A DNA stretch of 64,000 nt from Escherichia phage vB_EcoM_G53. The stretch lies in the sequence record MK327943.1; one strand, 5' to 3'. The translations under genes were made by a program, and so were the position numbers. Below, in pieces: positions 1-52,942 of the stretch. The notes beneath the pieces were generated by a model. The model made no database searches and was not told the DNA's origin. It worked only from the letters and a program-made list of their open reading frames with translations. The first letter of the stretch is position 1. The number at the start of each line of letters is the position of its first letter.

Positions 1-252
1 AAGTTTAGCATTACCCAAGATTCCGCGAACGGCTTTATCAATGTCTTCATTAAATAGCTTTTCAGCCTCATCAAGGGTAATTGTACCGTTGCATTTATGA
101 CCGATCATTCTGTCAAGTTCAGCTTTAGCTACGGCTAAAGACGGGTTCTTTGTTACCAAATGGCCTATGCCAATCGTCCAAAAGCCTTCGGTGTCTTTGT
201 ATAAAGTCAGTCTAAGACCTTCGTCATTACGAAGCATTTCAAATATATTCAT
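1..252 (-). CDS. e: endolysin (T4-type lysozyme e), N-terminal 84 codons; 3' end lies beyond the window start
   Basis: Minus-strand ATG at 252 reads [24 protein letters not shown], near-identical to the T4 lysozyme N-terminus; frame open to position 1. Confidence 0.9.
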
Positions 253-280
253 AATACCTCCCACGTTTATAGGAGGTATT
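253..280 (-). promoter_or_regulatory. stem-loop sequestering the Shine-Dalgarno of gene e (AAUACCUCC / GGAGGUAUU, 9-bp stem) with a late-promoter-like TATAAACG in the loop
   Basis: Perfect 9-bp inverted repeat 253-261 / 272-280 whose 3' arm is the GGAGG of the e RBS; T4 is known to control lysozyme translation this way. Confidence 0.55.
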
Positions 281-286
281 TATTAC

Positions 287-745
287 TTATAGGAGTGTAG
301 TGAGCACCTTATATAATGATTTACCCATTACATATTCCCATTGAGAAGGTTTAATTAAAGCGAATGCATCAAATTCAGGAATCTGTCGTCCGTCTGGGAA
401 TGTATGATAGGAATTACAAACACTGTTTCTGAATTGCTCGTGCTCTACAGGGATGGTATATAGGAACAGATGAATATTCTTATTGTCTGAGTAATGATGT
501 TCACCTAGGTCTTTCAGGAAGGCAGGGTCATATTGTGTAAACCCGGTTTCTTCTTCGCATTCGCGAATAGCGGCTTCAATAGGAGATTCGCCAGGTTCGA
601 CACGGCCTTTAGGAATATCCCACCGATGAGCTAATGCACCTTTAGGACGAGAACCAGTTACACGGCCCATGAATAACTCTTTATCTTTTGACATGAAGAT
701 AATACCGGCTGATAGCTCTTTCACTTTATTTTTCTTACTCATCAT
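287..745 (-). CDS. nudE: Nudix hydrolase NudE
   Basis: 152 aa; Nudix box GRVEPGESPIEAAIRECEEETG; directly after e as in T4. Confidence 0.85.
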   Translation of the reverse strand: MMSKKNKVKELSAGIIFMSKDKELFMGRVTGSRPKGALAHRWDIPKGRVEPGESPIEAAIRECEEETGFTQYDPAFLKDLGEHHYSDNKNIHLFLYTIPVEHEQFRNSVCNSYHTFPDGRQIPEFDAFALIKPSQWEYVMGKSLYKVLTTLL

Positions 746-2460: not shown

Positions 2461-2498
2461 ATAGGACTACTATAATATAGCCCTATCAGTTTGTACAC
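2461..2498 (-). promoter_or_regulatory. early promoter with inverted repeat (PeSL-type), weaker -35 (TGTACA)
   Basis: Minus strand TGTACA-N17-TATAGT; inverted repeat ATAGGACT / AGCCCTAT brackets the -10. Confidence 0.45.
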
Positions 2499-2779: not shown

Positions 2780-3736
2780 TTATTTGAAAGGTTTTACCAT
2801 ATGGAAATTTTGTTTGAAACGTTTGACGTAATCGTCGTGTCCTAAGCTTTGGTACATACTTACTACTTTGCTATAATTTTCCCAAGCGAACTCACGGAAC
2901 CATCCTGATGTGATTGATGTACAGACCTTTTCAAGGGCCATCATAAAACTATCACGTGGATGGATTTTAAAGTCGTTAGGAATCTGTGAACGTTCAAGAG
3001 CTAATACACAAGCTTCTTCATATACACCGGCTAATTTAACCATTTCTGGTAATGATTCGAACTTCTCGCGTGATGTCATAACTTCTGAGCCTTCTTTCAT
3101 ATAAAACTTATAAGCAGGCTGGTCAGTTAGTGCAATGGCTTCATGGATAGTATCATGGTCATACGTATAGATGTCATCTTTAAAGAACGCACTTTTAGAA
3201 GTGTCAAGAACTGGGTGAGCATAATTCAAGGTTTCTTTCTGGCGTTTCAGCATAATTTCAGTAAGTTCATCGTTCAGTGTAACACCTTTACCACGAAGAT
3301 ACTGAATATGGTTCATAGTCTTTAAAAAGAATGGATTATTTTTCTTGAAACGATGAGACATCTTAATTGCAAGACATATCTCAGGAGTTGCCCAGTAAAA
3401 CCCGTTCAAACGGTCTTTAGTCAAATTTTTCTTGGCGTATTTTAAAAGGTCATAAGAAGACGTGAAATCTTCAGGAGTGAGTTCACCGACTAGTTCGCGA
3501 ACGTTAGTGAGAGCCGGAACGATGTATGCTTCAAAATGAGTTTCGCGTCCATTATGGAAGCATTTGAAAACTTGGACATCAGGGTTATCTTGGTGAACAT
3601 ATACACCCATCATTTGATTTTTGAATGCATTCCAAGAACCTTGGTCCGCAATAAAGTCCCAATCACTATTTTTAATAGCGCTAGAATCAATAAGACCGTG
3701 ATAGTGAAGTGCACGAGAACCAATAACTAACATCAT
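2780..3736 (-). CDS. hypothetical protein (318 aa); N-terminal GS...DWD is weakly nucleotidyltransferase-like
   Basis: Long ORF, SD GAGGAAAAT upstream of ATG 3736; motif IGSRALHYHG...SDWDF; no secure domain call. Confidence 0.6.
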   Translation of the reverse strand: MMLVIGSRALHYHGLIDSSAIKNSDWDFIADQGSWNAFKNQMMGVYVHQDNPDVQVFKCFHNGRETHFEAYIVPALTNVRELVGELTPEDFTSSYDLLKYAKKNLTKDRLNGFYWATPEICLAIKMSHRFKKNNPFFLKTMNHIQYLRGKGVTLNDELTEIMLKRQKETLNYAHPVLDTSKSAFFKDDIYTYDHDTIHEAIALTDQPAYKFYMKEGSEVMTSREKFESLPEMVKLAGVYEEACVLALERSQIPNDFKIHPRDSFMMALEKVCTSITSGWFREFAWENYSKVVSMYQSLGHDDYVKRFKQNFHMVKPFK

Positions 3737-4023: not shown

Positions 4024-4061
4024 GATAGGACTACTATAACATAGCCCTATCTTGTTGTAAA
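4024..4061 (-). promoter_or_regulatory. early promoter (PeSL-type)
   Basis: Minus strand TTTACA (4056-4061) - 17 bp - TATAGT (4033-4038); inverted repeat ATAGGACT / AGCCCTAT brackets the -10. Confidence 0.65.
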
Positions 4062-9170: not shown

Positions 9171-9247
<77 letters not shown>

Positions 9248-9253
9248 AATATA

Positions 9254-9327
9254 TGACCCAGACCAGATTCGAACTGGTAACCTTTCCCTTATGAGGGGAC
9301 TGCTGCTAACCATTGAGCTACAGGGCC
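9254..9327 (-). tRNA. tRNA with CAU anticodon (Met, or Ile with modified C34 as in the T4 tRNA-Ile)
   Basis: Manual fold: acceptor GGCCCTG/CTGGGTC (one mismatch), anticodon loop CTCATAA, T-arm ACCAG-TTCGAAT-CTGGT; D-arm slightly atypical. Confidence 0.65.
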
Positions 9328-10763: not shown

Positions 10764-10791
10764 TTTATTTCTCCATTTACTCATTTGATTT

Positions 10792-10829
10792 GATAGGACT
10801 ACTATAACATAGTCCTATCATCATGTAAA
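10792..10829 (-). promoter_or_regulatory. early promoter (PeSL-type)
   Basis: Minus strand TTTACA (10824-10829) - 17 bp - TATAGT (10801-10806); perfect 8-bp inverted repeat ATAGGACT / AGTCCTAT brackets the -10. Confidence 0.65.
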
Positions 10830-11122: not shown

Positions 11123-11160
11123 GATAGGACTACTATAACATAGTCCTATCTGCATGTAAA
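11123..11160 (-). promoter_or_regulatory. early promoter (PeSL-type)
   Basis: Minus strand TTTACA (11155-11160) - 17 bp - TATAGT (11132-11137); same 26-bp palindrome as at 10792. Confidence 0.65.
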
Positions 11161-12219: not shown

Positions 12220-12954
12220 TTACCTTAAGATTGTTTCAATTTTAGAATAAAGCTCTTCTAAAGAGCCGTCGTTTGTAATAACTAAATCGCCTTCTTCAAT
12301 AGGCAACCCAGCTTCTGTAATATGTTTATCGGTGGATTCCGTACCAGAGCGAACCACATGAATAACTGTAGCACCCATCGCTCTAGCGGTTTCCATTTCA
12401 TGGACTTGGCGTGTATCGGTTACAACATAGTAATCGAAATCACTTCCAATATAATCCATATAGTTTAATGCAAAAAGCTTAACCCAATACATACGGTCAA
12501 ATAAATTAACGACAACATCCGTACCGAGGGCTTGCATAAGACGGCGGATTGACCATGTGTCGTTGATATTATTTATAGCTTCACGCAGGGCTTCATATGG
12601 TTTAATATCTAGATACGAATATCCACCTTCTAACGATGATAATACTTTAACATTATTAATCGGTAAATATTGACTTTGCAAATAAATTAGCGCTTCTTCC
12701 AATAATTCAATAACATCCAACTTATTGAGATTTAATGGTGTTTCACGGTCGTATCCAATGCCTTCAAAGTATTCGTATTTCAACTCTGTGAATACATCAG
12801 GATTTTCAGCATGCCTACGTCCCCAGGCTATTGCTAGAGCGTCTTTAATTGGATATGCTAATTGGTATTTTACGGATTTAAAGTTTGAATTGATGTAATC
12901 AGCAGTGGTGTCTTTACCACTACGTTTGATGCCACTTAAAAAGATTAGCTCCAT
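12220..12954 (-). CDS. 1: deoxynucleoside monophosphate kinase (gp1)
   Basis: 244 aa; N-terminal P-loop FLSGIKRSGKDT; close to my recollection of T4 gp1. Confidence 0.9.
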   Translation of the reverse strand: MELIFLSGIKRSGKDTTADYINSNFKSVKYQLAYPIKDALAIAWGRRHAENPDVFTELKYEYFEGIGYDRETPLNLNKLDVIELLEEALIYLQSQYLPINNVKVLSSLEGGYSYLDIKPYEALREAINNINDTWSIRRLMQALGTDVVVNLFDRMYWVKLFALNYMDYIGSDFDYYVVTDTRQVHEMETARAMGATVIHVVRSGTESTDKHITEAGLPIEEGDLVITNDGSLEELYSKIETILR

Positions 12955-13007
12955 AGGTTTTCCTCATATAATTTATGAGTGATTATAACATACGGAGCTA
13001 GAAGCGA

Positions 13008-31624: not shown

Positions 31625-32389
31625 ATGGCTACTTATGATAAAAATCTTTTCGCCAAACTAGAAAATCGTGGTGGGTATTCTCAGACAAATGAGACTGAAA
31701 TCCTCAATCCATTTGTCAATTTTAATAATTATGAGAATAGTCAGACATTAGCCGATGTTCTAGTGGCAGAAAGCATACAGATGCGCGGTATTGAATGTTT
31801 TTATGTTCCACGTGAATATGTTGCAGTGGACCTTATCTTTGGTGAGGACCTTAAAAATAAATTTACTAAAGCATGGAAATTTGCTGCATATCTGAACTCT
31901 TTTGAAGGTTATGAAGGAGCGAAATCGTTCTTCAGCAACTTCGGAATGCAAGTTCAAGACGAAGTTACATTATCTATTAACCCAGGTCTTTTCAAACACC
32001 AGGTCAACAATCAGGAGCCCAAGGAAGGTGATTTAATATACTTCCCAATGGACAACAGTTTGTTTGAGATTAACTGGGTTGAACCATATGACCCATTCTA
32101 TCAAGTAGGTAAAAATGCGATTCGTAAAATTACTGCAGGCAAGTTTATTTACTCTGGCGAAGAAATCAATCCGGTGCTTCAGAAAAATGAAGGTATCAAT
32201 ATACCTGAATTTAGTGACTTGGAACTTAACCCTGTTAGAAATCTTGACGGTATCCATGACATTAATATCGATGAATATTCTGAAGTTGAGCAAATCAATT
32301 CAGAGGCAAGTGAATACGTTGAGCCGTATGTAGTAGTTAACAACCGTGGTAGACAAAATTCACCGTTTGACGATGGGTTTATGAATTAA
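31625..32389 (+). CDS. 14: neck protein gp14
   Basis: 254 aa, T4 size and order. Confidence 0.9.
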
Positions 32390-52930: not shown

Positions 52931-52938
52931 TATTTATA
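52931..52938 (-). promoter_or_regulatory. late promoter (TATAAATA) for genes 26-25
   Basis: Minus-strand TATAAATA inside the palindromic TATTTATAAATA, 19 nt upstream of gene 26 ATG. Confidence 0.5.
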
Positions 52939-52942
52939 AATA
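52935..52942 (+). promoter_or_regulatory. late promoter (TATAAATA) for gene 51 and downstream baseplate hub genes
   Basis: Plus-strand TATAAATA 17 nt upstream of the gene 51 ATG, overlapping the divergent gene 26 promoter. Confidence 0.5.

Follow-up and report, generated by a model that had tools for sequence, protein, structure and literature searches.

A hairpin over the ribosome-binding site of lysozyme gene e in Escherichia phage vB_EcoM_G53: a likely Mosigvirus version of the T4 translational silencer

The window analysed here, a stretch of 64,000 nucleotides from Escherichia phage vB_EcoM_G53 (sequence record MK327943.1), begins inside a minus-strand gene that is cut by the left window edge. 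Its translation (codons 1–84, positions 1–252, ATG at 252–250) matches T4 lysozyme structures in the PDB with E-values of 2e-40 to 7e-38 and the Pfam family Phage_lysozyme (PF00959) at 5.5e-9, and its DNA is 97.6–98.6% identical to Mosigvirus records annotated as e or lysozyme. On the 5′ side it is adjoined by nudE, a NUDIX hydrolase gene identified by a profile match (287–745, minus strand, stop codon TAA at 289–287), and every gene from about position 3700 to position 1 is carried by the minus strand. The T4 lysozyme structures, Pfam and the upstream nudE thus bear out the identity and orientation of gene e (T4-type lysozyme/endolysin), which an earlier note on this DNA had proposed. A plus-strand ORF of 41 aa (167–292) that spans the intergenic region was set aside, since it lies antisense to e and nudE. 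In a megablast search the region falls in Mosigvirus, with 151 records at 95–99% identity (RB69, 97.6%).

The gap between nudE and e is 34 nt long, and the minus strand reads UAA-GUAAUAAAUACCUCCUAUAAACGUGGGAGGUAUU-AUG. From the nudE stop codon through the second ATG of e, this leader is identical in the window and in RB69. The RB69 RefSeq record (NC_004928; L100 201–674) puts the start of e at that second ATG (Met6, MLRNDEG..., corresponding to window position 237). The upstream ATG, at window position 252, has a GGAGG Shine–Dalgarno sequence and opens a T4-like N-terminus, MNIFEM, and the annotated RB69 start is probably five codons short. The hairpin described below anchors the annotation in this respect: e is read from the minus strand, and 252 is its true start.

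Within the gap, the repeat finder detected a perfect 9-bp inverted repeat with arms at 253–261 and 272–280 and 10 nt between them. Along the minus-strand RNA the order is AAUACCUCC-UAUAAACGUG-GGAGGUAUU-AUG, and the GGAGG Shine–Dalgarno sequence of e (261–257) pairs with CCUCC (276–272). The earlier note had described this repeat and its pairing, which hold to the exact nucleotide, and had proposed RNA folding as a check. The fold leaves the Shine–Dalgarno sequence paired and adds three pairs (U-G, A-U and U-G) to the repeat, giving a 12-bp stem of 280–269 with 264–253 and a free energy of −16.3 kcal/mol for the isolated hairpin. On the minus strand the 5′ arm is AAUACCUCCUAU (269–280, perfect-repeat part 272–280, anti-Shine–Dalgarno CCUCC at 272–276), the tetraloop is AAAC (265–268; the loop of the perfect repeat, 262–271, is TATAAACGTG) and the 3′ arm is GUGGGAGGUAUU (253–264, perfect-repeat part 253–261, Shine–Dalgarno GGAGG at 257–261). 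Six nucleotides separate the nudE stop codon from the hairpin base. Folded in a context of 101 nt, the region has a z-score of −2.5 against 200 shuffles. Perfect 9-bp repeats with loops of 3–12 nt give 12 overlapping matches in the 64-kb window, corresponding to seven distinct hairpins, as compared with 4.3 ± 2.6 such 9-mer matches expected from Markov-1 simulations, so that a 9-bp repeat somewhere in the window is unremarkable. What is remarkable is a repeat whose end lies 1 nt short of a start codon and which takes in the Shine–Dalgarno sequence of that codon. A search of the whole window with the Rfam 15 covariance models, at the gathering score, gave no match at 253–280 and returned two tRNAs only.

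In T4, early read-through RNA folds over the start of e and lysozyme synthesis is lowered about 100-fold (PMC3014915, citing McPheeters et al. 1986), and the RNAs made from the two late promoters of the gene, which do not include the 5′ strand, are translated (PMC3014915). This confirms the T4 mechanism as the earlier note had put it. According to the Figure 5 legend of the same review (PMC3014915), 5′ ends have been mapped for the upstream of the two late promoters. In its treatment of e, the review also predicts that close T4-type phages have similar leaders, in all of which the DNA encoding the 5′ strand contains a T4-type late promoter. RB69 is absent from the three lists in the Figure 5A legend (leaders identical to that of T4, e genes without the structure, and phages with no gene e), and its leader is presumably among those drawn in that figure. 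The mechanism of the e hairpin is accordingly already known from T4 since 1986, and similar predicted leaders in close relatives are known from the 2010 review. To the e stem-loops collected by Uzan and Miller (2010; PMC3014915), the survey reported here adds genera whose sequences became available after 2010.

The leader in the window resembles that of T4 in its nudE–e locus, in the 3′ arm GGAGGUAUU-AUG and a 5′ arm of the form AAUACC(U/C)UC, in a late-promoter box lying over the base of the 5′ arm, and in an anti-Shine–Dalgarno sequence that occupies the −5 to −1 spacer of that box. It differs from T4 in several respects. The upstream box is AATAAATA here and TATAAATA in T4; the second TATAAATA of T4, in the loop, is degraded here to TATAAACG and stands 1 nt nearer the Shine–Dalgarno sequence; and the hairpin has 12 bp and a 4-nt loop, where that of T4 has 11 bp, an 8-nt loop and an isolated stem computed at −13.3 kcal/mol as compared with the value given above.

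T4 late promoters carry TATAAATA at −13 to −6 (PMC1524935). In a list of 50 T4 late promoters, 32 have the perfect box, nine carry A at −13 and only two depart from it by more than one change (PMC2988020); in RB69 and other relatives there is little conservation at −13 (PMC1524935). The candidate gp55-type box AATAAATA (277–284, minus strand), which has A for T at −13, overlaps the base of the 5′ arm and lies partly outside the 253–280 interval to which the earlier note was confined. Counted from this box, +1 falls at 271, or at the purine 270, and the spacer from −5 to −1 is exactly CCUCC; a late RNA from this predicted start would consequently be devoid of the inhibitory arm. At window positions 32388 and 39604 the same octamer corresponds to two late promoters that Nolan et al. 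predicted in RB69 (Pl:97979 and Pl:105195), with a coordinate offset equal to that of neighbouring TATAAATA sites. The 31 late promoters that these authors predicted in an HMM search of RB69 include none ahead of e, and no promoter or terminator in their supplementary tables falls at RB69 coordinates matching window 1–660. The miss at e is likely due to the G+C-rich spacer: the box is followed by CCTCC instead of the usual A+T-rich stretch, as it is in the T4 e promoter for which 5′ ends are mapped. One more motif resembling the box, TATAAGTA (291–284), has one mismatch and lies over the nudE stop codon. It was judged a chance match and ruled out, being unconserved beyond Mosigvirus, and RNA starting near 278 would still form a 10-bp hairpin.

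The cost of unpairing positions −13 to +3 was computed for 80 initiation regions in the window. At 15.8 kcal/mol, that of e ranks second among the 80 (median 4.9, sd 3.1). For read-through RNA, unpairing 262–250 costs 17.0 kcal/mol when the transcript starts at 400 and 15.6 kcal/mol when it starts at 330, and RNA starting at 278, as would be expected from TATAAGTA, still requires 14.3 kcal/mol. The cost falls to 5.2–5.9 kcal/mol for RNA starting at 269–271, the product expected from AATAAATA. This is near the value of the median initiation region in the window, and corresponds to a predicted residual structure of 5–6 kcal/mol in the late e RNA. The same computation gives 15.3 (read-through) versus 3.9 kcal/mol (late) for the T4 leader, a contrast similar to that of 17.0 versus 5.9 kcal/mol found here, and means of 14.7 versus 4.5 kcal/mol over the 23 distinct leaders described next.

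These leaders come from the nudE–e junctions of T4 and ten other annotated phages, together with 80 IMG/VR loci that encode lysozyme relatives. The 23 distinct sequences are those of enterobacterial Tevenvirinae with lysozymes at least about 60% identical, and represent about ten genera, with Mosig-, Tequatro-, Gapriver-, Dhaka-, Gelderland-, Kanagawa-, Kagamiyama-, Jiaoda- and Moonvirus among them, as well as metagenomic relatives. The locus in the window is the nudE–e intergenic region, and its arms and start region can be aligned with those of T4 and of nine further genera. In the minimum-energy fold, the Shine–Dalgarno core is paired in all 23 leaders, with arm lengths, loops and some pairs varying among them. 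Two ways of building the stem can be distinguished. In Tequatro-, Mosig-, Dhaka-, Gapriver- and Gelderlandvirus it starts from AAUAC...GUAUU adjoining the AUG, and in Kanagawa-, Kagamiyama-, Jiaoda- and Moonvirus and their relatives the AAUAC/GUAUU part is unpaired and the stem grows towards the loop through CUCCUAUC/GAUAGGAG. Changes that keep the pairing include the compensatory replacement of CCUCC/GGAGG by CCCCU/GGGGG in Gaprivervirus, a G-U pair in the core of T4 and of the leader L032, and a U-A pair in the Mosigvirus variant L013 where the window has U-G (271/262).

With the alignment register anchored on the Shine–Dalgarno core, four core pairs form in 19 of 19 distinct rows. Over all cells, 75.7% are paired, as compared with 69.4% after shuffling and 40–50% in a slid control, and the covariation score is 0.176 versus 0.116 ± 0.014 for shuffled alignments (none of 500 reaches it) and at most 0.10 for slid ones; this register was fitted to the folds and leans toward structure. 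The covariation evidence is modest, supportive rather than strong, since the Shine–Dalgarno sequence and its complement are little free to vary and the register derives from the folds. RNAalifold found no consensus structure in the unfitted MAFFT alignment of the 23 leaders, owing to a shift of the anti-Shine–Dalgarno sequence by 1 nt between the two genus groups (CCUCC versus CUCC). The MAFFT alignment keeps the promoter box in register, and here the best-conserved element of the leader is ATAAATAC, with at least 90% conservation per column, directly 5′ of the anti-Shine–Dalgarno sequence and at a fixed distance from it; farther upstream there is no conservation. The core NATAAATA occupies the box position in 22 of the 23 distinct leaders, including those in which AAUAC is unpaired, and the full box reads TATAAATA in four, AATAAATA in 14 and GATAAATA in five. 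Since the box is kept where AAUAC lies outside the helix, pairing does not explain its conservation.

We propose, with a probability of roughly 85%, that the hairpin does in Mosigvirus (RB69-type) phages what the translational silencer of gene e does in T4, and that it is bypassed by late RNA from AATAAATA. Early and middle transcripts would start upstream and cross nudE into e. The nearest predicted early promoter, a sigma-70-type sequence found by consensus scan (TGTACA-17-TATAGT, 2469–2497, minus strand), is about 2.2 kb away; it falls within RB69 Pe:67959 of Nolan et al. (score 33.8) once the coordinate offset is corrected for a 12-nt indel. A terminator scan between this promoter and e found none that is convincing. 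With the promoter on the same strand, and by analogy with T4, early RNA from it would be expected to reach e. On this read-through RNA, CCUCC and its flanks would pair with GGAGG and its flanks up to the base before the AUG, and the resulting hairpin would block binding of the 30S subunit, so that no premature lysozyme would be made. Late in infection, gp55–RNA polymerase would use AATAAATA, the −5 to −1 spacer of which is the anti-Shine–Dalgarno sequence itself, and the late RNA, starting at about 271/270, would lack the 5′ arm and present a free Shine–Dalgarno sequence in a 19-nt leader. For the phage studied here, we observe the structure, its position, its conservation and its predicted energetics; from the literature, and for T4 only, it is established that the structure forms, that it blocks translation and that late 5′ ends lie downstream of the 5′ arm. 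Literature searches found no published transcript 5′-end or translation data for RB69-type phages, nor any usable genome-wide start-site data bearing on e from RB69 or T4. The activity of AATAAATA in this phage, like its exact start site, is a prediction.

The earlier note had placed the late promoter elsewhere, in the loop. The sequence concerned, TATAAACG (264–271, minus strand), stands where T4 has its second, loop-embedded late promoter and matches the late box at six of eight positions, the mismatches to TATAAATA being at −7 and −6. If it were active, late RNA would start within the 3′ arm. One other leader, L042, does carry TATAAACA in its loop. Nevertheless, matches to TATAAATA with up to two mismatches occupy 1.16% of positions in this window of 38% G+C, which gives a chance of about 0.22 of finding at least one in a 28-nt hairpin, and only two of the 50 T4 promoters listed in PMC2988020 exceed a single change. 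The TAT of the motif is explained by a CCUAU stem element common to nearly all leaders. Moreover, the implied start, G258, lies inside GGAGG and would yield a 6-nt leader, GGUAUU-AUG, with almost no Shine–Dalgarno sequence, whereas the T4 loop promoter leaves GAGGUAUU-AUG. The perfect loop box TATAAATA is confined to T4-type leaders, and the loops of most genera are unrelated. An active loop promoter is thus improbable and the motif probably non-functional; AATAAATA at 284–277 is likely the better candidate, as judged from the sequence comparison. The related proposal of the earlier note, that late transcripts start inside the hairpin, probably still holds by way of AATAAATA, with a start at 271 or 270, but not by way of the loop motif.

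It could also be argued that the hairpin serves mainly as a terminator or 3′-end stabilizer of the early nudE unit, a role that would be compatible with silencing of e. The GenBank records of phages MM02 and PhAPEC2 do annotate the e hairpin as a putative transcriptional terminator, in MM02 (−12.00; L001 783–806, window about 255–278) on exactly this stem, which contains G+C and begins just past the nudE stop codon. An intrinsic terminator was rejected in our analysis: the G+C stem is present but is followed by AUGAAUAUAUUU instead of a U-tract. The terminator scan made no call at the hairpin, no RB69 terminator of Nolan et al. corresponds to this part of the window, and T4 early transcripts are reported to extend into e (PMC3014915). 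Furthermore, the pairing partner is the Shine–Dalgarno sequence in every genus, and a terminator needs no such partner. We therefore give a mainly terminating or stabilizing role an even smaller chance than an active loop promoter. The terminator label in some GenBank records is probably wrong, and a translational silencer fits better.

Just as doubtful is a scenario in which both consensus late promoters of T4 e have disappeared from RB69-type phages and the hairpin has become stronger, the timing of lysozyme synthesis being left to an unusually weak A(−13) promoter with a G+C-rich spacer, or to post-transcriptional opening or processing of the read-through RNA. Were it correct, the control of lysis timing in these phages would be unlike the T4 paradigm. 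Least credible of all is that late lysozyme is made with no internal promoter whatsoever, from read-through RNA activated by nuclease processing in the hairpin or by a melting factor: in the window neither of the T4-type boxes matches the consensus perfectly, the stability of the hairpin is no lower than in T4 and the HMM search of Nolan et al. predicted no late promoter at RB69 e, but the NATAAATA box is held at a fixed distance in nearly all leaders independently of pairing, A(−13) variants of late promoters are common and accepted (PMC2988020, PMC1524935), and there is neither an evident processing signal nor an Rfam match.

As a translational silencer bypassed from AATAAATA, the hairpin would keep a lethal enzyme off early read-through RNA, a textbook case of promoter choice setting the translatability of a gene. 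Across genera, the conserved design appears to be a late box with the anti-Shine–Dalgarno sequence as its −5 to −1 spacer. The loop promoter of T4 would then be a lineage-specific extra, and current understanding of the mechanism is unchanged. The e leader also resembles those of soc, gene 49, I-TevI, I-TevII, I-TevIII and segB and of mobE of phage Aeh1 (PMC3014915, PMC2988022), in which read-through RNA with both arms is silent and translation takes place on RNA whose late promoter lies between the arms or overlaps them. These are other genes with unrelated sequences, however, and are analogues rather than homologues of the e element.

Comparable arrangements were seen at more distant loci. 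Six IMG/VR loci (L061, L063, L065, L066, L068 and L071), whose lysozymes are 38–48% identical, have CCTC, followed within 0–4 nt by a (C/T)(A/T)TAAATA-like motif, and 25–35 nt downstream a GAGG Shine–Dalgarno sequence able to pair with the CCTC. This suggests the same logic, with the box placed 3′ of the anti-Shine–Dalgarno sequence. On a 16.9-kb IMG/VR metagenome contig (L095, 1813–1841), the cassette of the e leaders recurs as AATAAATACCTCC-gataa-GGAGGTATTATG upstream of an ORF that codes for 98 aa and not for a lysozyme. The protein sequence suggests an N-terminal hydrophobic stretch and a possible coiled coil, and its sole match is PHROG 20984, of unknown function. The unit of promoter, anti-Shine–Dalgarno and Shine–Dalgarno sequence may hence be used at other genes too.

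Elsewhere in the window, the most buried initiation region is that of gene 1 (dNMP kinase, ATG at 12954; region 12946–13000, minus strand). On read-through RNA from the upstream late gene 3, UAGCUCCGUAUG pairs with CCUAUGGAGCUA, which comprises the AUG and codons 2–3, and an inner stem, CUCAUA/UAUGAG, covers the Shine–Dalgarno sequence. The opening cost is 16.2 kcal/mol for read-through RNA versus 2.7–3.1 kcal/mol for RNA from near 12975. A −10 element, TGTTATAAT (12990–12982), from which the RNA starting near 12975 would arise, lies between the arms and coincides with the predicted RB69 middle promoter Pm:78672 of Nolan et al. The architecture recurs at T4 gene 1 in another sequence (AGUUUUGUGUG/CACAUGAAACU), with a cost of 13.3 kcal/mol. 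On this model, gene 1 would be the mirror image of e, on when transcribed from its middle promoter and silent on late read-through RNA. Jiaodavirus and Kagamiyamavirus, in which genes 3 and 1 directly adjoin each other, do not have this arrangement, and we found no mention of it in the 2010 review.

Masked ribosome-binding sites may also occur at 52931–52942, where the divergent late genes 26 (minus strand) and 51 (plus strand) share a palindromic TATAAATA readable on both strands. Each of the two genes has a Shine–Dalgarno sequence able to pair with the complement of its neighbour's (AACUCCUUU/AAAGGAGU), and the initiation regions cost 9.9 and 12.3 kcal/mol to open, so that an RNA crossing from outside would have its ribosome-binding site masked. 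The window further contains repeated palindromes, GATAGGACTA...TAGTCCTATC, which are perfect at 10791–10820 and 11123–11150 and near-perfect at about 4024–4051. Those at 10791–10820 and about 4024–4051 have GTTTACA just before them and TGTTATAGT inside, which means that the stem-loop holds the spacer and −10 element of an early promoter. They presumably resemble the 'promoter-early stem-loop' cassettes of T4-type phages. The palindromes at 10791–10820 and 11123–11150 coincide with RB69 Pe:76459 and Pe:76812 of Nolan et al. Finally, two adjacent tRNA genes lie at 9174–9327 on the minus strand, and RB69 is annotated with tRNA-Arg(UCU) and tRNA-Met(CAU) at the corresponding place.
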